From a virus, in IMG/VR virus record IMGVR_UViG_3300032431_000006, positions 1-64,000 of that record: a stretch of 64,000 nt of DNA; one strand, 5' to 3'. The position numbers were made by a program, and so were the translations under genes. The stretch's first letter is position 1; each line of letters begins with the position of its first letter. The notes below the pieces were generated by a model. It did no database searches, was not told the origin of the DNA, and was given only the letters and a program-made list of their open reading frames with translations. This document shows positions 1 through 63,435 of this stretch, in pieces.

Positions 1-62
1 CTAGCTACCAGCACACAAAATGGGTAGAGTCGATGGTTGAGACTGTTCGAGATTTGATGTAA
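1..62 (+). CDS. partial CDS, 3' end of a gene continuing left of the window
   Basis: Frame open from window edge to TAA 60-62; followed by a hairpin-motif copy and a terminator, as at other plus-strand cassette ends. Confidence 0.3.
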   Translation, partial: SYQHTKWVESMVETVRDLM

Positions 63-83
63 TTCCCAATACTGGGATTAACC
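61..83. repeat. hairpin motif copy 1
   Basis: aattcccaatactgggattaacc; overlaps TAA 60-62. Confidence 0.85.
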
Positions 84-93
84 GTGAATAAAA

Positions 94-128
94 AACCCGC
101 AAATTCTTTTAAAAGTTTGCGGGTTTTA
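94..128 (+). terminator. rho-independent terminator
   Basis: AACCCGCAAA..TTTGCGGGTT plus a T-run; same terminator family as 59425-59460. Confidence 0.75.
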
Positions 129-209
129 AGTGTTTTGAAGAAGAAATCAACAAAGGTAAGTTATGTCTATTGTAGCACAATTATTGGGAATCCAATAATT
201 GCTTTAAAA

Positions 210-1817
210 TCAACCGTAGGACGTGCGACCGTACTTGCTTAGTGTTTCCTTGATAAAGACTTCAAAGTCGCGCTGACGCTCTCTGAGGGTGTCTATGATG
301 TCATCTTTGGAGGCTGTACCTTCAACATTCACGGTCGGGGAATAGGTGACAGTTTGCTGTTGGCTACCGCCACTGCCAGAGGAACCAAATAAATTAGAAG
401 AGCTAGCAGTAGGCATAGATGGCAGTACGCCGATCGCACTCATAAAGCCCTCTCTCAAAGGTCGGATTGTTGCTACCGCGATCGCGCCCGCCGCAGCTAC
501 GGCTAAAAGCGCTGTTGTAGCGCCGCCACCAAACACAGAGAAAGCTAACCCCGCAGCGGTCACAATGCCAGTTATAGCTGAAAAGAATAGGACTGTAGGG
601 GCGATCGCAGCAAGCGCCGCCCCAACGTATACGATCCCTTTAACAACTTTGGGGTTTTCTTTAGCCCAATCCGCTGTTTTCTGAACTAGCGGGATCATCT
701 TGTCTAACAAAGCGTTAATAGGCGGTAGCAAGGCATCACCAACAACGATCGCTAGCTTATTCATACTAACGCCCATCCGTGCGACTTCCGAGGCTGTAGT
801 ATTTGTTTGGATGTCAAATTCTCTCTGTAATGATGTTGCTGTTGCCTGTTCATCATTGGCAAGATTTAAAGCGCGTTGTAGCAAGTCTACATTAGTAGAC
901 ATCATCCCTAAATCGTCTGAGTATTCCCGACCACCTATTAAGGCAATAGCGCGCGATCGGGTAGCAGCGTCTAGTGAGTTAATCTTAGTTAGAAAATCAG
1001 TAATAGCCGCAGACCCGCGCGACCTGACATCTTCCTCCATCTCTCTAGCCGAATAACCTACCATTGCGATCCCGCGTTTAAATCGCGCCGATCCAACAGT
1101 TGCAGCGCTCATCGATCCAACTAGAAAATTAATCGCCGTGCCTGCTTTAGCTGGTACAATTCCCAGTGAAAGAATAGCGCCGGACAAAGCCGCGGTTTCT
1201 CGATAGGTTAACCCGGCTTGTGCAGCCAGACCGGAAACACGCGGCAACACTTTAGTTATCTCTTTTGCGCTTGCTGCCATATTATTAGAAAGTTCGTTTA
1301 TCGTTCCTCCCAAATCGTTCATTTCATCGACCGAAAGTTTGAAAATATTTCTGATTTTCGCCGCACTTTCCCCGGCTTCATCGGCTGGTAAATCAAAAGC
1401 AAACGCCATCTTTCCGACTGTTTCTGTAAATTTCAGAACCTCATCAGAAGCGATTCCGTATTGTGCCGCAGCAGCAGCAAGGGCGGCAATTTTATTCGGA
1501 TCAACTACTTTTAAAGTATTAGACAAGTCTAATATTTCCCCTTTCATTACTGCCAGTTTGTCGGGAGTCAAATCAAGGATTTTATTAATACTTGTGATAC
1601 TTGTCTCGAATTTTGTTGAGGCATCAAACGCCACAGCACCGAGCGCAACTAACGGCGCTGTAATGTACGTCTGTGCGCCTCCGACAACCTCATTCATTGC
1701 CCTTTGAGCTTCACTAATCCGCTTTAATTCATCCGCACCAGAACTAGCTAATTTTTGCAAACCGGGTGTTACGTTATCGGTTAGATCCGCTTGGACACCC
1801 AACTTTATTACGCCCAT
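210..1817 (-). CDS. tail tape measure protein
   Basis: 535 aa Ala/Gly-rich helical protein; block VLPRVSGLAAQAGLTYRETAALSGAILSLGIVPAKAGTAINFLV resembles the TP901-type tape-measure core; hydrophobic C-terminal segment; lies downstream of sheath- and tube-sized genes. Confidence 0.8.
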   Translation of the reverse strand: MGVIKLGVQADLTDNVTPGLQKLASSGADELKRISEAQRAMNEVVGGAQTYITAPLVALGAVAFDASTKFETSITSINKILDLTPDKLAVMKGEILDLSNTLKVVDPNKIAALAAAAAQYGIASDEVLKFTETVGKMAFAFDLPADEAGESAAKIRNIFKLSVDEMNDLGGTINELSNNMAASAKEITKVLPRVSGLAAQAGLTYRETAALSGAILSLGIVPAKAGTAINFLVGSMSAATVGSARFKRGIAMVGYSAREMEEDVRSRGSAAITDFLTKINSLDAATRSRAIALIGGREYSDDLGMMSTNVDLLQRALNLANDEQATATSLQREFDIQTNTTASEVARMGVSMNKLAIVVGDALLPPINALLDKMIPLVQKTADWAKENPKVVKGIVYVGAALAAIAPTVLFFSAITGIVTAAGLAFSVFGGGATTALLAVAAAGAIAVATIRPLREGFMSAIGVLPSMPTASSSNLFGSSGSGGSQQQTVTYSPTVNVEGTASKDDIIDTLRERQRDFEVFIKETLSKYGRTSYG

Positions 1818-1819
1818 TC

Positions 1820-1841
1820 ATTAATCCCAATGTTGGGAATT
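1820..1841. repeat. hairpin motif copy 2
   Basis: attaatcccaatgttgggaatt; 3 nt upstream of the tape-measure ATG. Confidence 0.85.
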
Positions 1842-3413: not shown

Positions 3414-3430
3414 ATTCCCAGTGTTGGGAC
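3414..3430. repeat. hairpin motif copy 3
   Basis: attcccagtgttgggac; between terminator 3380-3410 and the tube gene stop. Confidence 0.85.
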
Positions 3431-3435: not shown

Positions 3436-3927
3436 TTAACCGTACACTAATTCAACTCCTATTGTGTCTGACGACCCGGTTGGGAGTCTCCAAACCACAA
3501 CACCATTCTCTGTGCGCCAAGCATCGGTCACTTGTAATTTAATAGTGCCATCATCAGCCTTATCCGGGCTAACAGTACGCCCTGGTCTGCTAACATAACC
3601 TGAGTAGAACTCTCCATCGCTAGTCGCTACGGTAGGTGATGTCATATCTACATTTAATACCATCAGAGTAACAATCAACTTTGTATTAAATGCTTTTTCA
3701 ACAAACTTTAAAAAAGTAGGATTCCTTTTGTGATCCTTTAGTGACATGGTTAATTCTGCCGCTTGAATAGATCGAGGTTCTGGTTTTGTAAAGTCAGTCC
3801 CGACCACCATATCTGTGTCGTAATTTCTAGTAAATTCTGGTATTTCAATTGTCTTCACTTCACCGTTAACCAGAATCACTCCATTGTCATCAACAAACGC
3901 AACTTTGAGCATAAATTTAATCCACAA
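3436..3927 (-). CDS. putative tail tube protein
   Basis: 163 aa; start overlaps the sheath gene stop by 11 nt; size and position after the sheath-sized gene fit a tube protein; no motif recognised. Confidence 0.5.
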   Translation of the reverse strand: MWIKFMLKVAFVDDNGVILVNGEVKTIEIPEFTRNYDTDMVVGTDFTKPEPRSIQAAELTMSLKDHKRNPTFLKFVEKAFNTKLIVTLMVLNVDMTSPTVATSDGEFYSGYVSRPGRTVSPDKADDGTIKLQVTDAWRTENGVVVWRLPTGSSDTIGVELVYG

Positions 3928-5706: not shown

Positions 5707-5725
5707 TATTCCCAACACTGAGAAT
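5707..5725. repeat. hairpin motif copy 4 (degenerate)
   Basis: tattcccaacactgagaat. Confidence 0.6.
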
Positions 5726-6730: not shown

Positions 6731-6755
6731 GTTCCCAACACTGGGATTAATCTTT
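6731..6755. repeat. hairpin motif copy 5
   Basis: gttcccaacactgggattaatcttt. Confidence 0.9.
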
Positions 6756-7537: not shown

Positions 7538-7786
7538 ATGTCTCAACAACTAAGCGCCGTAATCAGACTAATTAATCCTCATATCAACTGCTTTTTTAGC
7601 TGCGACTGTGGCTTAAATTGGTGTACAGGCTGCGTTATCGCGACTATTCGGTTGCCTCTAGCCGAACATTCTAATGAGTTTGTGCTGGTTTGCGATATTG
7701 GCAATGAGTTGCACTGGGTAGCTGCAAACCGGGTCAAATATGCCACAATTCCCAACACGGGGATTAGTGAAATTAAAGACTTTTAG
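7538..7786 (+). CDS. doubtful Cys-rich small ORF
   Basis: 82 aa; contains a degenerate hairpin-motif copy near its 3' end; no promoter seen. Confidence 0.3.
   Translation: MSQQLSAVIRLINPHINCFFSCDCGLNWCTGCVIATIRLPLAEHSNEFVLVCDIGNELHWVAANRVKYATIPNTGISEIKDF
7747..7766. repeat. hairpin motif copy 6 (degenerate)
   Basis: aattcccaacacggggatta. Confidence 0.6.
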
Positions 7787-8192
7787 AACTAGAAAACATA
7801 TTTAATTCTAGCCGTTCCCCAAAGTTTTCGGAGTAAGCAGGCATCGAAGTGCGATCGAGACTTAGCAATATAAAATCATAAGTCCGATCGCCCAATAAAC
7901 AACTACCACCAACACCGGGAACTATCCATAAAGGTAATATTTTGGGCTGTTGCGCGTGACCTTTATAAACTCTGTTTTGCTGTCCACTGTTAGGGCTAGC
8001 AAACGATTCTAGGCTAGTGGTGATGTATAAATGAGCTAATACCCCAAATAGCTCAGAACCCGTAGGATTGCCCAAAATATCAATAGTTCCCACCAACGAT
8101 TTCTCAAAAGTTAGCGTAACGAATTGGTAATCAGATTTTAAAAAAGGTACACTGGGTAGAGTGTTTTTTATCAATTGGTTCAATGATATCAT
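7773..8192 (-). CDS. hypothetical protein
   Basis: 139 aa ORF; its start lies in the palindrome ATGATATCAT shared with the divergent ORF. Confidence 0.55.
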   Translation of the reverse strand: MISLNQLIKNTLPSVPFLKSDYQFVTLTFEKSLVGTIDILGNPTGSELFGVLAHLYITTSLESFASPNSGQQNRVYKGHAQQPKILPLWIVPGVGGSCLLGDRTYDFILLSLDRTSMPAYSENFGERLELNMFSSSKSL

Positions 8193-8557
8193 ACTCTCAA
8201 TTTACCCTAAAATATGGTGCTGAGTTTAATGAGCTAATCTACTCCGATTGGCTACCAGTCGCCACGGCTAAAGCGTCAATTTTCCCGTTAGCTTTCCGAG
8301 AGTTAGCGACCGAATATTATCTGGGTTGGCTGCTTTGTACCACATCGGGCGATCGGGAAAATTCAGAGGTCAAAAGTTTTGAAGTCAAACCAGAGGGTTA
8401 CTCAGTAAGTTATGCTAAAAATGATATCCCAAAGTGCGATCGCTGGCTTAAATTTTTAGAACAGTTAGCGATCGCAGCGGGTTTTGAGCTTCCAGAACTT
8501 AAGCGCACTCGAACGTTTGGTGGTAATCGCACCGAGGTATTTGTACACCGATTTTGA
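8183..8557 (+). CDS. hypothetical protein
   Basis: 124 aa; the only long ORF covering this interval. Confidence 0.5.
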   Translation: MISYSQFTLKYGAEFNELIYSDWLPVATAKASIFPLAFRELATEYYLGWLLCTTSGDRENSEVKSFEVKPEGYSVSYAKNDIPKCDRWLKFLEQLAIAAGFELPELKRTRTFGGNRTEVFVHRF

Positions 8558-8999: not shown

Positions 9000-9965
9000 C
9001 TAAACAGCTTTAACCACATCAATATATTTAATCCCTGCCGGATCGTGAATCATTGTACCGCTAGAACATGAGAAAAAAGGGAAGATTCGGGTTAATCCTT
9101 GTGTTGGTGCTAAAAATTGTTCATCAACTAACTGGGCAACTGTAGACTCGATCCGGCGACTGATTACCGCGGGATCTCTTGTGTAAACAATGATCCGATC
9201 GCGGTTAGTTGCAGCCGCAAAAACTCCGTATTTTTCGAGAATATCGCTCGAACTAAAGGGCGATCGGATAAAACTTGCAGAATTACCCGCTGCTGAGGTT
9301 CCCAGTTGCTCGATCGCAGCGTCTAAAGCTGAAACATCGCCATTTTGAGGGTTCATTATTCGAGATGCTAACACCCGCATCCGCTGCGATAACAGAATTG
9401 TGTCAGGCTCTAAAACTGTCTCACCATCCGCACTCAGTCCGGCGCTCAAGATAGTATCAATTAGAAATTCTACCCACTGAGCATAAGTCGCAGTGTTAGG
9501 GTTAAATGCTGACACCGTAACACTGACGTTAGGATTGTTATACAATCCGGTATAACCTAGAACAGGTTCCCCGATCGCCGCGAACCTGTTTAAGCGCTTA
9601 GCTATCTCCGATCGAACTATGTCAATTTTCCGGTTTTCTACTATTTGCCTGATTTGTAGCGCGTCTTGTGTTCGAGCTTCTTGCCACATTACAGAATATC
9701 CTTTTGCTGCCATTACAACAGGATAATTATCTGTACTTAAATTCACGGGCGTTAACGGGATGTCAGCAGCGCCGGGCGCTAGCAATATTGCCTCTTCCCC
9801 TAAATTACCGCCCATAAAGATCGCGCCGACCTCATCCTTCCCAGGCGGTAGGTCGCCCGTAGTAGGGATCAGTGTTCCATTCTCAAAAGGATATTGAGGA
9901 AATCGGTAGTTATTCCGAATTTCTAATCCTTCCGATATGTATTGCCACAAAGCAGAAACTGGCAT
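9000..9965 (-). CDS. putative major capsid protein
   Basis: 321 aa; follows the protease-scaffold gene and a small decoration-like gene; order and size are typical, and from memory it resembles DUF2184-type capsid proteins. Confidence 0.65.
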   Translation of the reverse strand: MPVSALWQYISEGLEIRNNYRFPQYPFENGTLIPTTGDLPPGKDEVGAIFMGGNLGEEAILLAPGAADIPLTPVNLSTDNYPVVMAAKGYSVMWQEARTQDALQIRQIVENRKIDIVRSEIAKRLNRFAAIGEPVLGYTGLYNNPNVSVTVSAFNPNTATYAQWVEFLIDTILSAGLSADGETVLEPDTILLSQRMRVLASRIMNPQNGDVSALDAAIEQLGTSAAGNSASFIRSPFSSSDILEKYGVFAAATNRDRIIVYTRDPAVISRRIESTVAQLVDEQFLAPTQGLTRIFPFFSCSSGTMIHDPAGIKYIDVVKAV

Positions 9966-9978: not shown

Positions 9979-10000
9979 AATTCCCATCAATGGGATTAAT
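9979..10000. repeat. hairpin motif copy 7
   Basis: aattcccatcaatgggattaat; loop TCAA; upstream of the capsid gene start. Confidence 0.85.
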
Positions 10001-10501: not shown

Positions 10502-11584
10502 TTATTTTTTCCAAGCATTCTCATAGCTGATGATTGCTGCTTTACCGTTCGCTAGATCACCTTTTTCTGAGATCGTATCATCTGGCATTTCTGCGGGTAT
10601 TTTTGAGCTTTTTTTGTTTAGTGCAGCCGATCGCTTTTTAGCCATATTGACTACAATCTCGATCGCTCTCAATTCTGCCGTAGCATCCGGTGTTACCAGA
10701 AAGTCCGCGAGCGATCGAGCGAATAACTCGTCAAACTCATGACTGGGCATTTTAGTTTCATTAACCAAAGCTTCAGCCGCCGATCTCAGACTAGCGTATT
10801 TTTGGCTAATCTCAGCATCTTTCTGATATTTTGATACTGACGCTTGCAAAGCTAGCACCTGTGTCTTTAAAGCCTCATTCTCTGCCTTGTGTGTGATTAA
10901 TTCAGCCTGTGATTGTCTGTACTTATCATCTAGATCCAAGTATGCCGGGTCTCTTTTGATATCGTCTACTCTTTCTGTCATTTTTTCTAAAGCTTCCTTA
11001 ACTTTCTGTACTCCGACGGTTTTAATAACTTGCTGCAAGCTATCAGGAAAGCCGCGATCGGCGCGCCCTATTCCTACTGTAGCATCCGCCGGAATAGAAA
11101 CTACACTGATCTCGAAAATTTCCCATTCGATCGCTTTTACTTTTTTTGGGCTGACTAATTTAGAATTCCACTCGTCACTTTCCCAAACCGCATTGCTCAA
11201 TACCTCATGTTTATACACTCGATAGCCTACACTAATTCCCCTGATAATGCCGTCTTTAACATTTTGATACAATTCCTCTGTAGCGGGCGATCGCGACATC
11301 TTAGCCACAGCTAAACCTCGATCGCCTTCCCATTTTATCGAACTAATAACGCCTCGAACCTGATCCGGATCATGATTCCATAAAAATGGAATTAAACCCG
11401 AATTAAGCCGATCGCCCTTAATTGCTTCTTCCCGACAATCTAAAACCTCTTCTACCACCTCCCATAGCTCCCAGTCCATACGGCGATGTGGGGTATTGCT
11501 AGCAAAGCTAAATTCTAGCGTTTTTATCCCTTCAGTATCGATCCCCGCGATCGCCCCGGACACGTCCCGATAGTTCATGTTCAT
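10502..11584 (-). CDS. prohead protease (HK97/S78-type) fused to a coiled-coil scaffold region
   Basis: LWNHD, GISVGYRV and EISVVSIPAD blocks in the N-terminal half; Ala/Glu/Lys coiled coil in the C-terminal half. Start moved to ATG 11584 because the track N-terminus MRFPTLGF is the translated hairpin motif. Confidence 0.8.
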   Translation of the reverse strand: MNMNYRDVSGAIAGIDTEGIKTLEFSFASNTPHRRMDWELWEVVEEVLDCREEAIKGDRLNSGLIPFLWNHDPDQVRGVISSIKWEGDRGLAVAKMSRSPATEELYQNVKDGIIRGISVGYRVYKHEVLSNAVWESDEWNSKLVSPKKVKAIEWEIFEISVVSIPADATVGIGRADRGFPDSLQQVIKTVGVQKVKEALEKMTERVDDIKRDPAYLDLDDKYRQSQAELITHKAENEALKTQVLALQASVSKYQKDAEISQKYASLRSAAEALVNETKMPSHEFDELFARSLADFLVTPDATAELRAIEIVVNMAKKRSAALNKKSSKIPAEMPDDTISEKGDLANGKAAIISYENAWKK

Positions 11585-11590: not shown

Positions 11591-11610
11591 AAATCCCAGT
11601 GTTGGGAATC
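11591..11610. repeat. hairpin motif copy 8
   Basis: aaatcccagtgttgggaatc. Confidence 0.9.
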
Positions 11611-13207: not shown

Positions 13208-13231
13208 CTCCCAACACTGGGATTAATCTTT
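13208..13231. repeat. hairpin motif copy 9
   Basis: ctcccaacactgggattaatcttt. Confidence 0.9.
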
Positions 13232-14090: not shown

Positions 14091-14115
14091 GTTCCCAACA
14101 CTGGGATTAATCTTT
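14091..14115. repeat. hairpin motif copy 10
   Basis: gttcccaacactgggattaatcttt. Confidence 0.9.
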
Positions 14116-15278: not shown

Positions 15279-15296
15279 ATTCCCAGTGTTGGGAAT
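15279..15296. repeat. hairpin motif copy 11
   Basis: attcccagtgttgggaat; perfect 7-bp arms; 10 nt upstream of the portal ATG. Confidence 0.9.
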
Positions 15297-15343: not shown

Positions 15344-15640
15344 ATGATATCAGGAATTTTAAAGAAATGGTTTCAGCCGTTAGCGAAGCCCTCGCAGAGG
15401 ATCGCCCCGAACGATTCTAACGAATGCCTACCGGAGCGCAAATCGTGGGAATTGAAGCCGGGCGATCGAGTATTTGTTGGCATTTGTCAAGGCGGCGCGA
15501 CGATCGAGTCGATCGCAGTCGATCGGGTAATGGGGACGGCTACGATCGTATGGGATAATGAACACGATCGGAGGCGATTAATCTCGGTCTTCAACAGTAA
15601 AGAAAAGTTTTTTATTCACTCAGTTTCTGCTGAGTTTTAA
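15344..15640 (+). CDS. hypothetical protein
   Basis: 98 aa from ATG 15344; TATAGT at 15302-15307; contains a 29-nt dispersed-repeat insert. Confidence 0.4.
   Translation: MISGILKKWFQPLAKPSQRIAPNDSNECLPERKSWELKPGDRVFVGICQGGATIESIAVDRVMGTATIVWDNEHDRRRLISVFNSKEKFFIHSVSAEF
15379..15408 (+). repeat. 29-nt dispersed repeat GTTAGCGAAGCCCTCGCAGAGGATCGCC
   Basis: Same sequence at 28085-28113, and inverted at 18814-18842. Confidence 0.8.
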
Positions 15641-51825: not shown

Positions 51826-51849
51826 CTTCCCAGTGTTGGGATTAATCTT
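51826..51849. repeat. hairpin motif copy 35
   Basis: cttcccagtgttgggattaatctt. Confidence 0.9.
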
Positions 51850-51851: not shown

Positions 51852-52688
51852 TTAGATTCGATCGCGTCTCTCAGCAGAAAAATAAAGAAAGTTTTCGGAG
51901 TTCGACTCAGTAGGGAGTAACGGGTAAAGCTGGAAACTGATCTCTATCCTCCGAGTATCATCGCTTAGATGAGGTGAGTCATTGCAATGGGCATACCCTA
52001 GAGCATCTAAATTTTGCTGACTCATAAAGTATGTATTTTGAGAAAAATCCATCCAAGAAGCCAATCTGCAAGCTTCTAAAAATTCAGCTTGATTACATTT
52101 TTGTGTTTGAGATTCATAACCTTTAAACCATTCCCAGTCATGCCCTAACATGGCATCTAAGATCCTATCAATGGTCGGCTGTTTAGCATCCCACAATAAC
52201 ATTTTATCTGACTCTGTAGGCTTGAAAACATCATTATGGAAATCTGCATATATCCAGTCATAGTAAGGGATAAAAGTTGAGTTTATGACTTTTATTACAT
52301 TTTTCAGTGCTGAAATATTGTTTGTTTGCTGGTATTTTGTCAACTTAGCGATCGCACGTTTGAGCCGTAATCTTGGCACGTCTAGCGCTTTAAAGCCTAT
52401 GTCTAACACCATATCTACTATCTCAGCAGCAAACATTGATCGGGGATCTTTCCCGACGCTTTCTAATACTCCGCAAGCGTAAGCGATTGATTTCCTTGCC
52501 TCTTCTATATTCTCGGTTGGAACCTTACCTAGCACAACGTTATTGTAGCCGTGCGTCATACAGAATACTGAGAATTTGCGGAATTTTATCAAGTGATCCG
52601 CTTTATTCCATGTGCTATTAATTTTGTTGGCAATATCGAGCAAGCGCTCAATCTCAGGAGTCAAAGGTAAAGACTTTATAACAGTCAT
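51852..52688 (-). CDS. hypothetical protein
   Basis: 278 aa ORF with its own TGtTATAGT promoter. Confidence 0.65.
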   Translation of the reverse strand: MTVIKSLPLTPEIERLLDIANKINSTWNKADHLIKFRKFSVFCMTHGYNNVVLGKVPTENIEEARKSIAYACGVLESVGKDPRSMFAAEIVDMVLDIGFKALDVPRLRLKRAIAKLTKYQQTNNISALKNVIKVINSTFIPYYDWIYADFHNDVFKPTESDKMLLWDAKQPTIDRILDAMLGHDWEWFKGYESQTQKCNQAEFLEACRLASWMDFSQNTYFMSQQNLDALGYAHCNDSPHLSDDTRRIEISFQLYPLLPTESNSENFLYFSAERRDRI

Positions 52689-53000: not shown

Positions 53001-53022
53001 AATTCCCAGTGTTGGGATTAAC
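53001..53022. repeat. hairpin motif copy 36
   Basis: aattcccagtgttgggattaac; contains the minus-strand stop 53018-53020. Confidence 0.9.
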
Positions 53023-53806
53023 GCGCGAATACGGTCGGGCGACCGTCAATACGGGTAACAACACGTCCCCATCCGCCCGAACCTCCAACTAGCCATAGTT
53101 TTGTCATTGAGGCGATCGAATAAACGTCAAATTTCCCGGCTTCTGACAGATTCGATAGCCAGTAATCGGTAGTACCTTCACGCGCCCCAAACGGGTCATG
53201 TACGATAATTTTATCTCGCAATTCAAAACCGACACCACAAACGATATGACCCGCGGTCTTGTAATCTAGTCCTAATACCATCGGGATAGAATTGCGAATA
53301 GACAGATAATAATCGTCAAAGGTTAATGATGTTGACCAATAGCTATCGACACCAAACTGGTTTAAAGCCTCTGTGTTGGCATTGTGATCTATAGTGTCGC
53401 CGTATCGTTTGAGCACGTCTAAATAGATAGATTCTGGCTGAGCTATATTATTTTTCGCTGCGGTAGCGTCTAATTTTCCATTGAGCACATAGTTGAGCAT
53501 TATCGCGTTACAAGTGCCGTTACACTCTCGATAGCCGTATCCGCTAAGGTTGTCGGTTTGGTAATAATACTCCGCAGGCAGAACTATATTTGTCGGTTTG
53601 TAATCCCAGTGTGGGGCGTAAACAAATCCCTGATTAAATTCGCTATGAACCAAATCTAAAGCAAGGTGCTGATGAGGGGCGGGCGTAATCTTTGAAACCT
53701 GCAATACTTCCCCTTTTATAATGTTGATTTTCTCATGCGCTTGTAGCTGTTCTGATGGCAGATTGCGCGCTTTGAGAATTGTTGAAACTTTAGCTGTAAT
53801 TGTCAT
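53018..53806 (-). CDS. C39-like cysteine peptidase, putative endolysin
   Basis: RECNGTCNAIMLNYVL (catalytic Cys context) and TAGHIVCGVGF...VHDPFG (His context) resemble the Peptidase_C39-like family. Confidence 0.55.
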   Translation of the reverse strand: MTITAKVSTILKARNLPSEQLQAHEKINIIKGEVLQVSKITPAPHQHLALDLVHSEFNQGFVYAPHWDYKPTNIVLPAEYYYQTDNLSGYGYRECNGTCNAIMLNYVLNGKLDATAAKNNIAQPESIYLDVLKRYGDTIDHNANTEALNQFGVDSYWSTSLTFDDYYLSIRNSIPMVLGLDYKTAGHIVCGVGFELRDKIIVHDPFGAREGTTDYWLSNLSEAGKFDVYSIASMTKLWLVGGSGGWGRVVTRIDGRPTVFAR

Positions 53807-53897: not shown

Positions 53898-54116
53898 TTA
53901 GTTTTGCTTTAAAACGTTTCCCCAAGTTCTGCCAGTCAATATGCTACCGATCGCGCTTTTGGACACCCCAAATAGCTCTACCAGTGATTTTCTGCTTACG
54001 CCTTCTGCTGACATTCGCCGGATATCTAGCACGTCTTGCTCTGTCAATTTAGCATTAGTATGATCCGCGCCTTTACGGGTAGTTGGTCGGCAATTGTTAA
54101 TGTATTGTTTAGGCAT
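53898..54116 (-). CDS. small HTH DNA-binding protein
   Basis: HTNAKLTEQDVLDIRRM...LVELFGVSKSAIGSILTGRTW; same block as the C-terminus of 31659..32123. Confidence 0.6.
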   Translation of the reverse strand: MPKQYINNCRPTTRKGADHTNAKLTEQDVLDIRRMSAEGVSRKSLVELFGVSKSAIGSILTGRTWGNVLKQN

Positions 54117-54314: not shown

Positions 54315-55331
54315 ATGGCAGATTATATTCCCTTGTCTCAGTGGGCAATTCCCAACGTATTTGTAAATACAACGCAACAATCAGCCGCAGAAATAAACAG
54401 TAGGTATCAAAGAATTGCCAACTGTGGGGAATTTTTGCGTAATCAAGCCGTGACTCTGGCTAATGCTGCGATCGTTCTATTAGCAGAGATAGACGCGGCG
54501 CTGGCTAATTTTGCATCACAACAGACTGCATTTAATTTGATGGCTACTGATGCCGGAAACAGAGTAAGCACCGCTAACACTTTACAAGCTAGCGCGGCGA
54601 CTTCTGTTGCTAAATTAAATACTAATAATGCAGCGGTAGTTACTGCTAGAGGCAAGTTGACCACAGCAGACAGTAATGCTAACGGCGTTATTAATAATGG
54701 CATGGTAAAATCGGGGACTAACTTGGATGCCATAGCATCAGCAATTAGAGCCAATCCGGGTATTCTTGGACTCAATGGTTCTAGCGTTTGGACTTGGTAT
54801 TCTGCACCTAGTGGGGCCCCGTTTGTTATCGAATTTCAAACTTTTGCGGGACAGTACGCGAGTACATCAAACGGCGGTTCCGTAACTGCGGGGGCTTGGA
54901 ATCTTGTAGATATTAACAGCGCGGGTTATGGTAGCTTTAAAAACGCGATCGGGTTTCCTCAGAATGTAGTTGAGGAATTTTCCGATCGCCTCAATTTGAA
55001 AGAATTTACCCATTATTGGCAAGCGGTTATATTAGGCTCAAATACTGATTCGATGCGCGCGCGGTTTACACTTGATGGAGTAGGTATAGATAGGTCGTTA
55101 TCGACTCAAATGGGAACTGATAGCAACACCAACACATTAAGACATTATAATCAAGATTTGATTATAGATGCTGTAATTATTCCCACGATCGAGACAGCAT
55201 ACCTCAGACTAGAAACCTATCACCCCGCGGTTAATACTGCTATTAGTACAGCCGCTAAGGGCTTATCAGGTAATAAAGGCATCGAAAACGTGTACATGAT
55301 AGGATATGGATTTAGAGTTAGAAACATTTAA
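54315..55331 (+). CDS. fibre-like paralog
   Basis: 338 aa; Ala/Asn/Thr-rich helical N-terminal half; beta-rich C-terminal half ending YGFRVRNI; stop TAA lies in the hairpin motif. Confidence 0.65.
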   Translation: MADYIPLSQWAIPNVFVNTTQQSAAEINSRYQRIANCGEFLRNQAVTLANAAIVLLAEIDAALANFASQQTAFNLMATDAGNRVSTANTLQASAATSVAKLNTNNAAVVTARGKLTTADSNANGVINNGMVKSGTNLDAIASAIRANPGILGLNGSSVWTWYSAPSGAPFVIEFQTFAGQYASTSNGGSVTAGAWNLVDINSAGYGSFKNAIGFPQNVVEEFSDRLNLKEFTHYWQAVILGSNTDSMRARFTLDGVGIDRSLSTQMGTDSNTNTLRHYNQDLIIDAVIIPTIETAYLRLETYHPAVNTAISTAAKGLSGNKGIENVYMIGYGFRVRNI

Positions 55332-55348
55332 TCCCAGTGTTGGGAATT
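55327..55348. repeat. hairpin motif copy 37
   Basis: tttaatcccagtgttgggaatt; contains stop TAA 55329-55331; GGAG of the next gene follows. Confidence 0.9.
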
Positions 55349-56047: not shown

Positions 56048-56719
56048 ATGAGTATTATAGCACGGAAAGCAACAGTCGCGATCGTCAAAATGGGAATCTT
56101 GGAAATAGAAGGTCTCAGGTTTGATGACAATGGGGAGTATGCGGTAGCGGTTCCACAAATCTGTAGTCTATTTTCAATCGACACAAACCAGGCTGCAAGA
56201 AGCCTCAAAAGTATACTGGGTAAAGGTTTGTCAATCGACAAAGCGCGTACTACATTACACTCGAACCCTGTCAATTGTATTACACTTCTAGACTTCGATC
56301 GGTTGATAACCGAACTGACAATAAAGCAAAACCCAACCGCGATCGGGTTCAGTCGAGCATTAAACGGTTTGGCATTAACTCAGTTATTCTCAGACGCTTT
56401 TGGGATCAAGTTTGAGAAGGAAGATCGCCAGCAATATTTGATTAAGCGTCAGACACATAAAGAGCAATTTCATCCCAAGTTCACGGCATGGCTAAAGAAG
56501 GATGCAGGTGGCGATAGTAGCGCCGTCAAATGGGGTTTAAAGGTGGATGAACTCAAACTAGCTGCTGGGGTTCCATTGACCTTTATTGATGAATACAACC
56601 CGGCTGAGTATGCGACGATCGACAAACTGAATCAAGCTTATGCCTCATACCATTCGCTACGTTTGGCGGGTATTTCTCATGAAGGGGCGATCGGGGTTTT
56701 GAAATTGCAAAATAATTAA
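56048..56719 (+). CDS. paralog family A protein
   Basis: ILEIEGLRFDDNGEY and FSDAFGIKFEKEDRQQ blocks; canonical TTGACA-16-TATAAT promoter and conserved leader. Confidence 0.75.
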   Translation: MSIIARKATVAIVKMGILEIEGLRFDDNGEYAVAVPQICSLFSIDTNQAARSLKSILGKGLSIDKARTTLHSNPVNCITLLDFDRLITELTIKQNPTAIGFSRALNGLALTQLFSDAFGIKFEKEDRQQYLIKRQTHKEQFHPKFTAWLKKDAGGDSSAVKWGLKVDELKLAAGVPLTFIDEYNPAEYATIDKLNQAYASYHSLRLAGISHEGAIGVLKLQNN

Positions 56720-56739
56720 TTCCCAATACTGGGATTAAC
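56717..56739. repeat. hairpin motif copy 38
   Basis: taattcccaatactgggattaac; begins with stop TAA 56717-56719. Confidence 0.85.
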
Positions 56740-59389: not shown

Positions 59390-59416
59390 AAAGATTCCCA
59401 ACACTGGGATTAATCC
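59390..59416. repeat. hairpin motif copy 39
   Basis: aaagattcccaacactgggattaatcc. Confidence 0.9.
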
Positions 59417-59542: not shown

Positions 59543-60271
59543 ATGACCTTAGCATTTTTTCAATTCCAAAGCAATCAAGTCCGGGTTGTTGCGATCAACG
59601 GCGAACCCTGGTTTGTGGCTAAAGATTTGTGTGCAGTGTTGGGAATCAGTAATTCCCGTGATGCTGTTGAACGTTTGGATGAGGATGAGAAGGGTGTCGT
59701 TACTACCGACACCCTTGGTGGAAAACAAGAGCTAGTAACGGTTTCAGAGTCTGGGATGTACTCGCTGGTGTTGACTTCCCGTAAACCGCAGGCTAAAGTT
59801 TTTAAACGCTGGATTACTCACGATGTTGTACCCACTATCCGCCAGACTGGGAAATATGAAATCGAGCCGATCGCTCCTACCGAACACCAACTACCAGCTA
59901 CCTATATAGAAGCCTTGAAAGCACTTGTAATAGCGGAGGAAGAGAAAGAGGCATTGATACAAGCAAACGCGCTTCTAAGTGCAACTAACGAATGCTTGCA
60001 AGAGGATATTGAGCTATTTACCGAAGTAGTGGATGAGCTTTTTAACTACTCTTCAATTATTCGGATTGCCAAGTTTAACGAAGTTAATGAAAAAATCTTC
60101 AATTGGTACAGCTTGAAAGCCGCTAGCAAAATGTTAAAAGTAGAGGTAAAAACAGCACCTTGCCCACGCTACGGAAAGAAAAACCTTTACAGCCACGATG
60201 CTTGGCGACTAGCCTATCCCGATGCTAAATTGCCTGAGACTACTACACTAACGATCGCCCGCAAAGATTAA
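59543..60271 (+). CDS. Bro-N domain antirepressor-like protein
   Basis: FQFQSNQVRVVAINGEPWFVAKDLCAVLGI...MYSLVLTSRKPQAKVFKRWITHDVVPTIRQTGKY is a typical Bro-N domain. Confidence 0.85.
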   Translation: MTLAFFQFQSNQVRVVAINGEPWFVAKDLCAVLGISNSRDAVERLDEDEKGVVTTDTLGGKQELVTVSESGMYSLVLTSRKPQAKVFKRWITHDVVPTIRQTGKYEIEPIAPTEHQLPATYIEALKALVIAEEEKEALIQANALLSATNECLQEDIELFTEVVDELFNYSSIIRIAKFNEVNEKIFNWYSLKAASKMLKVEVKTAPCPRYGKKNLYSHDAWRLAYPDAKLPETTTLTIARKD

Positions 60272-60286
60272 TTCCCAACACTGAGA
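60263..60286. repeat. hairpin motif copy 40 (degenerate)
   Basis: aaagattaattcccaacactgaga; contains stop TAA 60269-60271. Confidence 0.6.
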
Positions 60287-60349: not shown

Positions 60350-60376
60350 AAAGATTCCCAACACTGGGATTAATCC
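60350..60376. repeat. hairpin motif copy 41
   Basis: aaagattcccaacactgggattaatcc; identical to copy 39. Confidence 0.9.
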
Positions 60377-61180: not shown

Positions 61181-61212
61181 AAAGATTAATCCCAACGCTG
61201 GGATTAATCTTT
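61181..61212. repeat. hairpin motif copy 42 (fullest form)
   Basis: aaagattaatccca-acgc-tgggattaatcttt; perfect 14-bp arms. Confidence 0.9.
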
Positions 61213-61909
61213 AAATAATTGTTGTAACGATCGTAACAGTTCCTATTTTGGGGAATTGATTTGCTGCTGTAATTAAATTAGATATAGGTGCTGAAATTGC
61301 CACGTCATCAATACCCGCGATCGAGCGGATAGCTGCTGTTAAATCACTAGGACGGATGGTCGCGCCTAATTTCAGTTTAGACACGGCATAGTTGCTTACA
61401 GCGGTTGTGGCTAGAGCTTGTAAGGCGATCGGATTACCGCTTACGGTAATAGTTGCATTAAAATTCCATGTGACCTGAGTTGCTGCGGATACGGTGTAAG
61501 TATCACAGATATTTTTAACTGTAGGGCTATTCAAATAAGCCTGTAACCCGGCAATTTGACCCGCGCTGGGTGTACCTGTTTTTGCTAATAGAAAGACCTG
61601 TATACTCATCGGAGTGTTCGTGTTAGCAACATTCACATCCGCCACATCAGTATATGCTCGTGATAAAGCAATAATTGCCTCTTTATTCCCCGCGCCATAA
61701 GGGAGTAAATATATCTCGGTTTTATACTTCTCATACGCTGCAACAATTGCCGTCTCAGTGTCAATTTTTGCCCATGACGCAATTAAAACTAAAACCTCTC
61801 TATAAGCCCATTCTAGCGATCCGATCGTCAAGTTTTGACCGGATAATTCAAACCATTTTGTAGCTATGCGATCGCGCAAAGCTGCTAAATTCAAATCAGA
61901 TTGAAACAT
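61211..61909 (-). CDS. baseplate J-like protein
   Basis: 232 aa; C-terminal IRPSDLTAAIRSIAGIDDVAISAP resembles Baseplate_J family ends; follows the gp25-like gene. Confidence 0.5.
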   Translation of the reverse strand: MFQSDLNLAALRDRIATKWFELSGQNLTIGSLEWAYREVLVLIASWAKIDTETAIVAAYEKYKTEIYLLPYGAGNKEAIIALSRAYTDVADVNVANTNTPMSIQVFLLAKTGTPSAGQIAGLQAYLNSPTVKNICDTYTVSAATQVTWNFNATITVSGNPIALQALATTAVSNYAVSKLKLGATIRPSDLTAAIRSIAGIDDVAISAPISNLITAANQFPKIGTVTIVTTII

Positions 61910-62189
61910 TTATTTGTTTGCCATTTAAATAAACACTAACCCGATCGCCTTCGACTTCTATACTATCGATCGAGAATGGTAAATATCTCTCAATCATAGC
62001 GGTAATTTGTTCTACCGGATCGACGGCATCCCGATCGCGCCCAAAATCCCAGTTAAACGGAATTTCCCAGTGATGGGAATTTAAACAAAGCGTTAATATC
62101 TGACGTTGAGATTGAAACCCAGAAACAGGCTCATTTATTTTCCCGAATTGCATCATCATGTCTTGTATTGTGGTATAGTGGAATAACAA
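61896..62189 (-). CDS. gp25/W-like baseplate wedge protein
   Basis: 97 aa; size and position between the gpD-like and J-like genes; contains an in-frame hairpin-motif copy. Confidence 0.45.
   Translation of the reverse strand: MLFHYTTIQDMMMQFGKINEPVSGFQSQRQILTLCLNSHHWEIPFNWDFGRDRDAVDPVEQITAMIERYLPFSIDSIEVEGDRVSVYLNGKQINVSI
62064..62079. repeat. hairpin motif copy 43 (inside a CDS)
   Basis: ttcccagtgatgggaa; inside the gp25-like gene. Confidence 0.7.
62171..62179 (+). promoter_or_regulatory. promoter (TGgTATAGT)
   Basis: Upstream of 62208..62489; lies inside the start of the divergent gene. Confidence 0.45.
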
Positions 62190-62207
62190 ACTAAAGAGAA
62201 TAAAGTC

Positions 62208-62489
62208 ATGGGAAAATTTAAGAAAGAAGAAGACCGATTAATTGCCGTTAACTGCACTATTAGCAAAAGTGATCTAGAGTTGGCAGAAATGATGGGGAGT
62301 AAATTAGTAGACGGCAAAACGGTCGTCAATACTTCTTTAGGTCTCAGGCAAGTCTTTGATGCTGTCAGAAGGTTTGGGCAAGCTCTGCAAGTCTTGGAGA
62401 ATATCAGAGCTAACCCGCGTCAATCTAGAAAGTTAGTCGATGCTTTTTTGGGGCCTCTTGAAATTAAGGAGGCAAGTAGCGACAGCTAA
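62208..62489 (+). CDS. hypothetical protein (opposite-strand insert)
   Basis: 93 aa; TGgTATAGT promoter 62171-62179. Confidence 0.45.
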   Translation: MGKFKKEEDRLIAVNCTISKSDLELAEMMGSKLVDGKTVVNTSLGLRQVFDAVRRFGQALQVLENIRANPRQSRKLVDAFLGPLEIKEASSDS

Positions 62490-63402
62490 GGGACGCAACC
62501 CAATCCAGTTTATCCTGAGTGTCGATCGTGTGAATAACGCGATCGACAAAAGCCGATCGCCCGTCTAACGTAAAAACACTGCCTGCTATCATTCTCCAGT
62601 CTCCCAGAATTTCAAAGTCGAATAAATAGTTAGCCCCGTTGATCCGCCTTAATTGGTCGCGCGCTGCTATTACCATTAAGTTTTCGTCATCCGCTCCGAC
62701 ACCCGCTCCCCTATAGGTGATTATTTTACCATTAGAAACGCGGGTATCTTCAACTCTGATATATTCCCTATCTCCAAATAATACCACCTCATAATCAATA
62801 TATTGATAAGTTTCTGTACCTAAAATTGTCTCCGAATAATTTATAAATTGTGTTGAATTAATAGCAAATAACGGCGGGCGGGTTTCTAAGTCTATAAGCA
62901 ATGTAAAAATTAACTCTCTGTTTTCTATCTTGAAAACAGCGCCGATCCTATTTGCCAACCCGTTTAAAAAATCAAGGTCTGACTGGTTAGTCTGTGCTAT
63001 TTGCGAAAATTCTATATCAGGTAAATCAAGGGTAAATACTGACAATTGATAGCGTTCTGCTATCTCTTCGAGTATGTCTATTAATCTATATTCTGAATAA
63101 TCCGCATCCCGTTTGAGCTTCAACTGAGGATCTGACAATGGCAACCCGGTCGCTGCGATCGTTCTTAGGTTATTTTGCAGGCTGATCCGATCGACTTCAA
63201 ATAAACCCGCTTTAAGCCTGTATACCGAGTCTACACGCCCTATTTCTAACTCGATAGTAGCTTTAGGCGCGATCGGGATTATGCCTCTGTCAATGACGCT
63301 TAACTCGATATCCGGCGATCCTCCTGTTAGCGGGTCACTATAGCTGAGTTTTACAACGTCTGTTATCAATCTGGGATAGTTGAGTCTGATTAAACTTGGC
63401 AT
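62464..63402 (-). CDS. gpD-like baseplate hub / late control D-like protein
   Basis: 312 aa; N-terminal layout (short edge strand, IELEIGRVDS...GLFEVDRISL, DILEEIAERYQL) resembles the P2 gpD / Mu gp44 family. Confidence 0.6.
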   Translation of the reverse strand: MPSLIRLNYPRLITDVVKLSYSDPLTGGSPDIELSVIDRGIIPIAPKATIELEIGRVDSVYRLKAGLFEVDRISLQNNLRTIAATGLPLSDPQLKLKRDADYSEYRLIDILEEIAERYQLSVFTLDLPDIEFSQIAQTNQSDLDFLNGLANRIGAVFKIENRELIFTLLIDLETRPPLFAINSTQFINYSETILGTETYQYIDYEVVLFGDREYIRVEDTRVSNGKIITYRGAGVGADDENLMVIAARDQLRRINGANYLFDFEILGDWRMIAGSVFTLDGRSAFVDRVIHTIDTQDKLDWVASLSCRYLPP

Positions 63403-63407
63403 ACTTT

Positions 63408-63435
63408 AGATCCCAGTGTTGGGAATAATTAATCC
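63408..63435. repeat. hairpin motif copy 44
   Basis: agatcccagtgttgggaataattaatcc; 6 nt upstream of the gpD-like ATG. Confidence 0.85.

Follow-up and report, generated by a model that had tools for sequence, protein, structure and literature searches.

A conserved palindrome at gene boundaries in an uncultured virus of cyanobacteria

The stoperators of mycobacteriophages are sets of 20-30 sites in short intergenic spaces, with a consensus that co-varies with the repressor. We describe a presumably cis-acting palindrome that is specific to one cyanophage lineage and resembles stoperators in having many short intergenic sites and a lineage-specific consensus. However, its density in the window (the entire 64,000-nucleotide stretch of an uncultured virus of cyanobacteria that we analyzed) is higher than that of known stoperators, roughly one copy per 1.5 genes, and copies occupy even tiny gaps inside late operons.

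The pattern TYCCCA-N4-TGGGAW matched the window 44 times, against 0.03 expected from shuffled sequences. The first-pass annotation had read this as 44 copies. The motif does exist, at a frequency well beyond chance, but 11 palindromic sites had been matched on both strands, so the pattern has only 33 distinct sites. The shorter CCCA-N4-TGGG has 39 sites (0.6 expected), and TCCCA-N4-TGGGA, also with 39 copies, is by far the dominant short dyad of the window; the runner-up dyad (13 copies) is merely tandem HIP1 (GCGATCGC). Adding four one-mismatch copies to the 39 exact ones and subtracting one probable chance match (59085) gives a census of about 42 family members, beyond which there is one decayed copy at 46628 (Table 1). 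The family consensus is AATTCCCA-N4-TGGGAATT. The copy singled out earlier as the fullest, 61181-61212, is indeed a perfect 14+14 palindrome, but it falls outside the pattern by which copies had been defined (ATCCCA). The stem is 5 bp in most copies, with a T.T or A.A mismatch at position 6 in 26 of 42, so the typical copy in this clade is an asymmetric unit, ATTCCCA-ACAC-TGGGATTAATC. Centre orientation, previously described as uncoupled from the side carrying TTAATC, is in fact coupled to it: with TTAATC set 3', the centre is ACAC-like in 21 of 25 copies (p about 0.001). Relative to the sense strand, neither orientation of the centre prevails (15 versus 12), and sub-families of paralogous copies in the window have longer flanks in common.

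Genes fill 80% of the window, yet 37 of the 42 copies lie outside called genes (p about 6e-21). They occur in 34 of the 53 intergenic gaps of at least 20 nt (64%), so the earlier wording of "almost every gene boundary" was too strong. Copies are tied to gene 3' ends: one lies within 15 nt after the stop codon in 16 of 68 genes, versus 4 of 68 before the start; within 60 nt, the counts are 30 and 9. All eight TAA stops previously quoted as lying at palindrome arms adjoin a copy (0-1 nt), and the three reported translated copies were verified. About 28 of the 42 copies (about two thirds) are in 3'UTR or intercistronic positions with no strong terminator between, and strong canonical terminators adjoin about 17. 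Copies 13209, 33468, 40279 and 47825 lie beyond terminators, some others sit in divergent promoter gaps, and two copies, 15281 and 40279, each overlap a -35 region. With respect to transcription, the asymmetric extension is modestly biased towards one orientation (19/25, p 0.015).

Table 1 Coordinates, sequence features and surroundings of the palindrome copies in the window.
Copy	Centre or arms	Surroundings	In relatives
64..77	ATAC; TTAAC extension right	1 nt past TAA of + ORF running in from window start; terminator 92-127 adjoins	
1825..1838	ATGT; TTAA left	start of tape-measure gene 210..1817(-) 7 nt downstream	kept in 5
3416..3429	GTGT	convergent genes; 6 nt past stop of 3436..3912(-); terminator 3379-3406 adjoins	
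5710..5723	one mismatch, TGAGA arm		TGAGA variant common to 4
6733..6746	ACAC; extension TTAATCTTTGCG then HIP1	after terminator 6702-6722; 3' end of gene cassette 6236-6756	
7750..7763	one mismatch, GGGGA arm	9 nt past stop of 7773..8192(-)	arm intact (TGGGA) in C
9982..9995	TCAA	16 nt upstream of major capsid gene 9000..9965(-)	centre TTGT
11594..11607	GTGT	divergent gap; 9 nt upstream of prohead protease gene 10502..11584(-)	
13209..13222	ACAC	after terminator 13175-13193, ahead of HIP1 and promoter of 13363..14049(+)	
14093..14106	ACAC	3' end of two-gene cassette 12484-14117; 25 nt past portal gene stop	
15281..15294	symmetric ATTCCCA-GTGT-TGGGAAT	divergent gap, portal gene / 15344..15640(+); -35 region of TATAGT promoter	
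17646..17659	symmetric, ACAC	3 nt past stop of 17663..18715(-)	
19994..20007	CTGT	TTAATC arm contains TAA stop of KilA-N gene 19142..19993(+); terminator 20016-20038 next	
22195..22208	symmetric, TTGT	minus strand past copy: CCGGGATT, then TATAAT promoter for 21172..22128(-)	
22829..22842	GTGT	adjoins TAA stop of Dcm-like methyltransferase gene 22843..23808(-)	
23921..23934	symmetric, TTGT	44 nt past stop of 23979..24398(-)	
24517..24530	ACAC	adjoins TAA stop of KilA-N gene 24531..25256(-)	
25978..25991	ACAC	11 nt past stop of helicase gene 26003..27451(-); within longest ORF call for 25345..26043	
27571..27584	GTGT	first of pair 80 bp apart, in 380-nt gap from helicase to primase gene	
27651..27664	GTGT	second of pair with 27571..27584	
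31369..31382	ACAC	divergent gap upstream of primase gene 27832..31245(-)	
32460..32473	GTGT	left HIP1-CCGCAAAGATTAA, right HIP1; upstream of 32607..33392(+) promoter	
33468..33481	GTGT	after terminator 33416-33436, then CCGGAAAC hairpin and TATAGT promoter	
35175..35188	symmetric	inside gene 34978..35463(+), read as IPNTGN	
36996..37009	GTGT	32 nt upstream of 37042..38937(+)	
40279..40292	symmetric, GTGT	directly past hairpin 40243-40272; TTGGGA is -35-like hexamer 18 nt before TATAGT of Dam methyltransferase gene promoter	
41273..41286	symmetric, GTAA	promoter upstream; 41312..43387(+) 25 nt downstream	
43393..43406	one mismatch, TGAGA arm	5 nt past stop of 41312..43387(+)	TGAGA variant kept in A and B2
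44585..44598	ACAC	13 nt past stop of 43528..44571(+); then terminator 44601-44627	
46628..46641	decayed, TCCTT-GTAA-TGGGA	1 nt past stop of KilA-N gene 45928..46626(+)	intact version in A
47162..47175	GTAA	adjoins TAA stop of 46754..47161(+); HIP1 and promoter next	
47825..47838	symmetric, TTGT	terminator before, GCCGGATT after	
50291..50304	GTGT; TTAATC right	last codons (INPNTGK-stop) of 50286..51077(-)	
51828..51841	GTGT	10 nt past stop of 51852..52688(-); then HIP1, terminator, promoter	
53004..53017	GTGT	adjoins TAA stop of 53018..53806(-)	
55332..55345	GTGT	adjoins TAA stop of 54315..55331(+)	
56721..56734	ATAC	1 nt past TAA stop of 56048..56719(+); bidirectional terminator next	
59396..59409	ACAC	divergent gap; in repeat of about 70 nt common with copy 60356	
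60273..60286	one mismatch, TGAGA arm	1 nt past TAA stop of Bro-N gene 59543..60271(+)	
60356..60369	ACAC	module is duplicate of 59396	
61190..61203	core of 61181-61212, AAAGATTAATCCCA-ACGC-TGGGATTAATCTTT	convergent genes either side	
62065..62078	symmetric, GTGA	inside ORF 61896..62159(-), read as NSHHWEI	
63411..63424	GTGT	8 nt upstream of baseplate-hub-like gene 62464..63402(-)	

Comparison with related viruses revealed how the repeat evolves. In orthologous copies from relatives about 85% identical, the arms are 97-100% identical, versus 60-85% for the centre and 75-92% for the flanks; taken together, arm conservation is 99-100%, with centre and flanks drifting at about 80-87% identity. The window preserves 55 of 59 copies of the relatives intact, whereas neutral evolution would predict 14-20%. 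This retention and the near-100% arm conservation point to site-by-site purifying selection. Judged from these alignments, selection on the arms is strong while the centre drifts and sometimes flips (copy 3416 to ACAC in relatives C and B8; copy 35175 in relatives A and B2). Across nine genomes, the 4-nt spacing is constant in 143 of about 147 copies, and compensated arm variants within one genome did not exceed chance. The centre is ACAC here, CGGC or TGCG at 79% portal identity, GCGC at 64-67% and GCAA in relative E. At 54% portal identity both arms have changed symmetrically, giving TTTCCA-AATT-TGGAAA (16 copies, 15 intergenic). The whole consensus is perfectly palindromic in two lineages, and in L170 eight copies are arrayed in tandem, one every 39 bp, ahead of a promoter. 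The aligned genomes thus document selective constraint together with lineage-specific concerted change of the palindrome, and some turnover and concerted evolution of the repeat within the phage lineage are real.

A 20-mer of the repeat, searched in 185,579 species genomes, matched only a phage-like contig binned into a MAG, and the metagenome contigs with multiple copies were all relatives of this phage. The repeat is therefore absent from cellular genomes and is not a host dispersed repeat, which refutes the host part of an earlier proposal, a self-spreading SDR-like repeat common to phage and host.

Given the strong selection and the lineage-specific variants, the palindrome is most likely where a single sequence-specific factor docks to mark gene boundaries, much as at mycobacteriophage stoperators. 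We tentatively favor the interpretation that it is a double-stranded DNA site through which a putative two-fold symmetric protein acts at gene boundaries; that the reader is a protein, that DNA rather than RNA is read, and that the effect is transcription block or insulation are points we infer. The constant spacing, centre flips, lack of sense-strand bias and symmetric arm switch all point to a symmetric DNA reader, as do the palindromic consensus, the L170 array and the copies beyond terminators or in divergent gaps. An operator for a dimeric DNA-binding protein, one of the roles suggested at first pass, best fits the fixed sequence and spacing, the conserved arms and the arm switch, but no reader or lysogeny module was found for it. 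Family scans for the putative reader returned only KilA-N, Bro-N, a 72-aa HTH protein and a Zn-ribbon + HTH protein, and a double-HTH protein beside the portal gene is present in one sub-clade only. The scans detected no integrase or partition genes and no lysogeny module, so a lysogenic repressor scenario is without support. Several features sit less easily with DNA reading. About two thirds of the copies would be transcribed and RNA hairpins are thermodynamically plausible in the folding predictions, while the symmetric arm switch fits a base-paired stem equally well. The uniform centre per genome despite near-neutral drift among orthologs needs weak selection or concerted evolution, and a purely symmetric reader leaves the orientation bias of the extension unexplained.

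It is possible, though we consider it doubtful, that the UCCCA-N4-UGGGA hairpin at cistron 3' ends works as RNA, either by stabilizing mRNA 3' ends or by being recognized or processed by a sequence-specific RNA-binding protein or RNase, and would delimit cistrons in a Rho-less host. The proximity to stop codons and the many 3'UTR or intercistronic positions are consistent with this proposal, as are predicted hairpin energies of -6.3 to -13.2 kcal/mol, a drifting loop between conserved arms, pairing that is preserved in the switch from TCCCA/TGGGA to TTCCA/TGGAA, and palindromic arms that would be functional from either strand. However, the loop has no sense-strand preference, 26 of 42 stems end at 5 bp, and the copies past terminators or in divergent promoter gaps are poorly placed for such a role. 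The conserved variants 43393 and 60273 would produce a C.A mismatch in the sense RNA. The loop length is near-constant and the arm sequence is the same throughout, lacking compensatory variants within a genome; the palindromic centres (GCGC, AATT) and the gene-less tandem array have no obvious RNA rationale, and an Rfam search gave no family match.

Still less probable in our view, and unlikely overall, is that the copies are recombination linkers or selfish repeats with no regulatory role, which act mainly as microhomology at gene boundaries and are maintained and homogenized by copy-paste, gene conversion and cassette exchange among co-infecting relatives. This would liken them to PeSLs, which provide a precedent, or to integron attC sites. 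The genome alignments do place copies at cassette-exchange junctions. Cassette indels end 3' in a copy (6236-6756, missing in relative A and bounded by HIP1 repeats, and 12484-14117), and at the 25978 locus relatives A and B2 have an extra small gene flanked by two copies. Relative A also has an extra gene directly left of copy 36996 and a cassette swap with its junction inside the motif, where the left flank of copy 64 meets the right flank of copy 56721, both with the rare centre ATAC. One clean 26-nt indel was found, and 25% of the intergenic breakpoints in homology have a copy no more than 15 nt away, versus 11% expected (p 0.002), an enrichment of only about 2-fold that is inflated by alignment anchoring on conserved islands. 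The shared flanks of paralogous sub-families, the centres that are uniform per genome and different per lineage, and the centre-extension coupling, expected of descent by copying, fit as well, and the phage encodes domain-shuffled paralogous cassette genes and a RusA resolvase. Low turnover and the near-complete conservation of the arms argue against this explanation, as do both sequenced cassette junctions, which fall at HIP1 rather than at the motif. Moreover, a stretch of 14-20 bp offers little length for homologous recombination, the analysis turned up no recombinase dedicated to such sites, and host genomes are without the motif.

Very improbable is the remaining suggestion, that the copies are weak intrinsic terminators (a scanner marks TCCCAACACTGGGA then TTAATCTTTG as terminator-like, but the stem is merely 5 bp, the T-rich tail is antisense in 19/25 co-directional contexts, strong canonical terminators stand alongside about 17 copies and the flank 3' of the L169 variant is A-rich, in agreement with the initial view of the motif as something other than a terminator) or a decoy of a host CRISPR repeat or Cas6 hairpin, for which the sole support is a partial resemblance of just 7+4 nt to the Synechocystis I-D repeat (TAATCCCG-GCGAT-CGGGA), from which the palindrome differs in loop length and closing pair, with no GAAAC tail and no spacer-containing arrays.

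Under the favored interpretation of a double-stranded DNA site, one sequence-specific dimeric protein with two-fold symmetry would read the palindrome. Copies lie just past stops, usually ahead of the next promoter and often by an intrinsic terminator, and because of this position their occupancy would delimit or insulate transcription units. An occupied palindrome would then be a roadblock or boundary element in the manner of mycobacteriophage stoperators, and at the few promoters that it overlaps it may have an ordinary operator role. The recurrence of one 14-30 bp sequence at gene ends would also make the copies, together with HIP1, crossover points for the gain, loss and swapping of gene cassettes.

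The TCCCA-N4-TGGGA palindrome (hereafter the dyad, with TCCCA and TGGGA as its arms and the N4 as its centre) is strongly over-represented in the window. The first-pass annotation had counted 44 copies. Its pattern does match 44 times against 0.03 expected, but 11 palindromic sites were counted twice, leaving 33 distinct sites. The shorter CCCA-N4-TGGG occurs 39 times against 0.6 expected. Allowing TCCCA-N4-TGGGA up to one mismatch gave 44 matches, two of them apparently due to chance, and thus about 42 copies; a further, decayed copy starts at 46628. The dyad dominates the short dyads of the window, with 39 copies against 13 for the runner-up, tandem HIP1 (the cyanobacterial repeat word GCGATCGC).

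Five of the 42 copies lie wholly within called genes and 37 outside them, in a window that is 80% coding (p ~6e-21). The dyad is present in 34 of 53 intergenic gaps, which falls short of the "almost every gene boundary" first described, and tandem, convergent and divergent gaps are occupied alike. A copy is found within 15 nt past the stop codon in 16 of 68 genes and within the same distance before the start in 4; within 60 nt, the counts are 30 and 9. The dyad is primarily a gene 3'-end feature. The stop codons, the translated copies and the 14+14 palindrome quoted in the first-pass annotation were all right on checking.

Read outward from the centre, about 60% of half-sites are TGGGA-AT and about 35% are TGGGA-TTAATC(TTTGCG-HIP1). 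Most copies pair one half-site of each type, so that 26 of 42 copies are mismatched (T.T or A.A) at position 6. A longer stem or cruciform is rejected by this mismatch, and arms of 5-7 bp are probably too short for cruciform extrusion. Centre orientation had been described as uncoupled from the side of the TTAATC extension. However, the centre is ACAC-like in 21 of the 25 copies with TTAATC set 3' (p ~0.001), and the typical copy is therefore an oriented unit, ATTCCCA-ACAC-TGGGATTAATC. Among 25 co-directional contexts, 19 have the extension on the transcription-upstream side (p 0.015), and the centre has no sense-strand bias (15 versus 12). The flanks inspected gave no consistent sign that copies had inserted into a split HIP1 or had produced a TTAA target-site duplication.

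The phage promoters form a regular set, TCCGGnTT-N17-TATGGTATAGT, with TCCGGnTT or CCTGATA about 17 nt upstream of an extended -10. The dyad lies upstream of consensus promoters, and the usual order is stop codon, dyad, HIP1 cluster and promoter. It can be as near as 8 nt or as far as 86 nt from the extended -10, and a copy lies within 100 nt upstream of 12 of 33 promoters, so it is not a fixed-position promoter element. Of about 24 strong intrinsic terminators, about 17 have a dyad no more than 40 nt away, on one side or the other. The dyad accompanies terminators without replacing them. An intrinsic terminator needs a GC-rich stem of some 6-7 bp or more and, on the sense strand, a U-tract after it; the earlier statement that the dyad is not itself a terminator holds, with a stem of 5 bp, a T-rich side that is mostly antisense and separate strong terminators adjoining. 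Four cassette genes, starting at 13363, 19142, 32607 and 56048, have a promoter and a 5' leader of ~60 nt in common, which may serve as a common translational or regulatory leader.

Coordinates of features in the window and its relatives, and dyad consensus by lineage (L-numbered loci, E and F are related viral or metagenome contigs)
Feature	Location	Strand	Portal identity	Dyad copies	Sequence or detail
HIP1 examples	6224-6248, 12466-12482, 47177-47200
Promoter set	33 sites, e.g. 13289, 24449(-), 33526, 43488, 47247, 51763(-)				extended -10 TRTGNTAKRNT, typically TATGGTATAGTATA
Shared leaders	13283-13365, 19061-19144, 32525-32609, 55966-56050	+			conserved hairpin CACCG...CGGTG, RBS TAAGAGG
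Shuffled gene families	19142-19993, 24531-25256, 45560-46626, 50286-51754, 12542-14049, 56048-56719, 59543-60271, 38996-39637
ATCGCCTCGACTCG/GCGATTAAATCGAGGCGAACG repeat family	31490-31565, 23945-23977; also near 22230, 63440, 49990
L170			79%	26 in 21 kb	AATTCCCA-(CGGC, TGCG/CGCA)-TGGGAATT
L168, L172, L173, L174, E, F			64-70%	5-12 per locus	CATTCCCA-GCGC/GCAA-TGGGAATG
L169			54%	16, 15 intergenic	TTTCCA-AATT-TGGAAA
L171			33%	none	no dominant dyad; HIP1 abundant
Double-HTH protein	L168:9597-9923, L172:631-936, L173:4378-4698, L174:14817-15122, also L011, L036

Several other repeats were observed in the window. A gene-less 1.2-kb region (19994-21172) carries tandem repeats of a 10-bp unit (x3.6), GATTTTA (x13) and the 16-bp TACCTTAGCCATGCCA (x11), and may be an origin or a pac region; at the syntenic position, L170 (6378-6690) has a 39-bp x8 dyad array instead. 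Another family consists of the 14-bp ATCGCCTCGACTCG (x5.4), and related GCGATTAAATCGAGGCGAACG strings lie beside several dyad copies. The 380-nt helicase-primase gap (27460-27830) holds two dyad copies and the palindrome GTAGTAC-ACAC-GTACTAC; the copy starting at 27571 is flanked by the palindrome TAACACGTTTA...TAAACGTGTTA, and the gap may be a replication or regulatory region. Two coding tandem repeats encode low-complexity acidic or Gly-rich stretches: GGAAGAGGGAGA x4 (47110-47157) at the end of gene 46754..47161, and a GAGGCT-type, HIP1-containing repeat (47547-47744) within gene 47293..47772.

The structural genes of the window include a T4-type large terminase, Mu-like portal, prohead protease, major capsid protein and tape measure, alongside a DUF3854 primase-like protein, a helicase and Dam and Dcm-like methyltransferases. 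No tRNAs were detected. No close relative was found among deposited phages (no megablast match in INPHARED), and terminase identity to any deposited phage is at most 49%. The genome is slightly longer than the window, as ~3.2 kb separate the window's two ends in a relative. HIP1 abundance is a hallmark of cyanobacterial DNA. CGATCG-type words are the most over-represented in the phage. HIP1 occurs 54 times in the window against 1.2 expected, which shows the host to be a cyanobacterium. Together with the sole motif match in a cellular genome, which lies in a phage-like contig of a cyanobacterial MAG, this marks the source of the window as an uncultured tailed cyanophage.

Viral and metagenome scans recovered relatives ~81-88% identical to the window, in which the motif is about as dense. 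Between orthologous copies, identity is 97-100% in the arms, 60-85% in the centre and 75-92% in the flanks. Of 59 copies in relatives, 55 are intact in the window, whereas drift of the ten arm positions at the rate of the flanks would leave 14-20% intact. At two orthologous sites the centre has flipped from GTGT to ACAC.

A graded series of more distant relatives was gathered via portal homologues. The consensus varies by lineage, with ACAC, CGGC/TGCG, and GCGC or GCAA centres and with TGGAAA arms in L169, and the dyad is a perfect palindrome in two lineages. L170 includes a tandem array of eight dyads with a 39-bp period upstream of a promoter. In L169, copies usually lie 2-57 nt past a stop codon and, in the early region, 6-20 nt upstream of a TTGACA -35. 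Copies in three metagenome contigs (L111, L119 and L149) were unrelated chance pairs. In 143 of ~147 copies from nine genomes, the two arms are exactly 4 nt apart. The stem covariation raised in the first-pass annotation was not seen: no compensated arm variants exceeded chance within any of the nine genomes. The arm switch between lineages preserves pairing but is equally a dyad switch. The dyad is thus a lineage trait, fixed in sequence and spacing, and its sequence changes in concert at all the sites of a genome.

These properties lead us to propose, tentatively and as a possibility somewhat short of probable, that a two-fold symmetric, sequence-specific reader binds the dyad on double-stranded DNA and acts at gene boundaries in a stoperator-like manner. 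Pointing to such a reader are arms that are identical everywhere, the invariant spacing and a neutral, invertible centre. So do the perfectly palindromic consensus of two lineages, arms that switch symmetrically, a tandem array free of genes and the copies away from gene 3' ends. Pfam, NCBIfam and PHROGs scans of ~60 ORFs identified no reader and gave generic DNA-binding candidates only: KilA-N and Bro-N proteins, a 72-aa HTH protein (53898..54116) and a Zn-ribbon plus HTH protein (31659..32123). The same databases returned no immunity repressor, integrase or parABS in the window or in a relative's off-window segment, many ORFs being without annotation; lysogeny is unsupported because no integrase or partition system was found. 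A protein of 101-108 aa with two HTH-like repeats, divergent from the portal gene, occurs only in the clade at 64-70% portal identity. It was rejected as the reader, being absent from the window clade, where an unrelated 98-aa ORF (15344-15640) takes that position. A 124-aa gene, 8183..8557(+), lies on the opposite strand within the head-tail structural module, and every lineage with the motif has kept it, at 36-90% identity. No family matches it, and its medium-confidence model (pLDDT 70) has no significant PDB fold match.

The DNA-reader, RNA-hairpin and recombinational roles are not mutually exclusive. We consider a role as an RNA hairpin unlikely: the predicted stability would suffice and the majority of copies are transcribed, but the copies are without strand bias, the sense-strand mismatches are conserved and covariation is absent within genomes.

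Two window cassettes (6236-6756 and 12484-14117) are missing in relative A, a related contig; both have HIP1 direct repeats at their borders and a dyad just inside the 3' end. At the copy starting at 25978, relatives A and B2 have an extra small gene with a copy on each side. A cassette swap in relative A joins the left flank of the copy at 64 to the right flank of that at 56721, both of which have the rare ATAC centre, and elsewhere one clean 26-nt indel adds or removes a copy past a terminator. Intergenic homology breakpoints lie within 5 nt of CGATCG in 31% of cases against 11% (p ~2e-5), and within 15 nt of a dyad in 25% against 11% (p 0.002); both enrichments are inflated by conserved islands, and the latter is modest and partly an alignment-anchor artefact. 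The phage also carries paralogous, domain-shuffled cassette genes of the KilA-N, Bro-N and T5orf172/MUG113 types. Their KilA-N N-termini are up to 88% identical and their C-terminal modules are common to several paralogues, which indicates active cassette recombination. One relative encodes a RusA resolvase just beyond the stretch that corresponds to the window. A role that is chiefly recombinational or selfish would account for the concerted evolution and the junctions, but leaves the site-by-site purifying selection unexplained, and we regard it as quite unlikely.

A broader reading, which we think very improbable, would make the dyad the tag of all gene ends in a phage cassette system, where one phage factor both insulates each transcription unit and provides a crossover point. 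The factor would recognise either the DNA palindrome or a hairpin extruded from it, promoter-gene-terminator cassettes would be exchanged between co-infecting relatives at the dyad, and lineage-specific centres and arms would define compatibility groups for recombination and regulation. Its functional counterparts would be the attC sites of integrons, or the "linker sequences" that have long been hypothesised for modular phage evolution.

A host-type dispersed repeat (SDR, REP or MITE) would often be gained or lost with precise edges and would decay neutrally in older copies; it is rejected by the retention of 55 of 59 copies, the single clean indel and the identity of the arms against ~82% for the flanks. 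The first-pass suggestion of an SDR-like repeat shared with the host also fails on distribution, as genome and metagenome scans place the motif in phage relatives only. The 20-mer TTCCCAACACTGGGATTAAT was found in one contig among 185,579 species genomes, itself 85-91% identical to the window, and metagenome contigs with several copies and HIP1 were all relatives of this phage. No Rfam family matched in the window. The proposed CRISPR-repeat decoy is very unlikely: copies are dispersed, the sole array (in L170) is a pure 39-bp tandem repeat without unique spacers, and similarity is partial and confined to the I-D repeat of Synechocystis, which may not be the host of this phage. The dyad thus stands outside host SDR/REP, terminator, CRISPR-repeat and Rfam families.

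Among known systems, a highly conserved inverted repeat recurs in many intergenic copies in Streptomyces phage phiC31 (the CIRs, bound by the phage repressor) and as the 17-bp palindromes of Cluster O mycobacteriophages, with about 18-30 copies in phages of actinobacterial hosts. The dyad differs from these in its greater copy number, its unrelated sequence and the lack of an identified repressor, and its role is putative. In integrons, every gene cassette ends 3' in attC, an imperfectly palindromic site that moves with it. The dyad shares the position at the cassette 3' end. However, it is far shorter and also lies between core genes, no integrase was found, and sequenced junctions fall at HIP1 or inside the dyad without an attC signature.

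The stoperators of Cluster A mycobacteriophages L5 and Bxb1 are 13-mers that lack symmetry, bind a monomer and work in one orientation to transcription (PMC9283540, PMC6550527). In stoperator systems, the bound protein blocks the elongation of transcripts. Both systems place dozens of one short site genome-wide, chiefly in short intergenic spaces near stop codons, with a few copies overlapping promoters and a consensus that varies by sub-lineage and follows phylogeny. The cyanophage site, in contrast, has dyad symmetry, an invariant 4-bp spacing and a core that shows no clear orientation rule. It is denser (42 copies in 64 kb), and its host is cyanobacterial, with no repressor, integrase or parABS found. 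PeSLs (promoter-early stem-loop cassettes) of T4-type phages each combine a strong sigma70-like promoter and a terminator stem-loop, and recombination between them yields mini-circles that are encapsidated (PMC2839356, PMC4122927). They resemble the dyad as short conserved intergenic modules, repeated many times, that flank non-essential genes and are present at insertion, deletion and replacement junctions of close relatives. Unlike PeSLs, the dyad is neither promoter nor terminator but adjoins separate terminators, HIP1 clusters and promoters, and it also occurs within core structural operons, beyond hyperplastic regions. SDR (Elhai et al. 2008) and REP/REPIN elements (PMC3116915) are likewise very short, hairpin-capable intergenic repeats with some evidence of copy turnover. 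Cyanobacterial SDR also share the HIP1 association, and SDR5 is reported to insert in HIP1. The dyad differs in its absence from cellular genomes and in arms under strong purifying selection with no neutral decay; neither a RAYT (REP-associated tyrosine transposase) nor any other transposase was found. The closest functional analogues would be Cluster A stoperators, phiC31 CIRs and Cluster O palindromes, with PeSLs for cassette shuffling. No comparable cyanophage system was described in the literature searched, where the dyad sequence gave irrelevant matches only.

The dyad is real and strongly selected, with an interesting evolutionary series and a putative function. If it is a protein-binding boundary element, a single factor acting at more than 40 sites would control or insulate the majority of transcription units in this cyanophage lineage. 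The graded relatives, with their differing centres and a symmetric arm switch, offer a natural experiment on the coevolution of reader and site, a question already studied for stoperators and superinfection immunity. The dyad and HIP1 at cassette junctions bear on how short gene-boundary sequences channel recombination. The motif is also a sharp signature of this phage lineage in metagenomes and MAGs, one relative having been binned into a cyanobacterial MAG.
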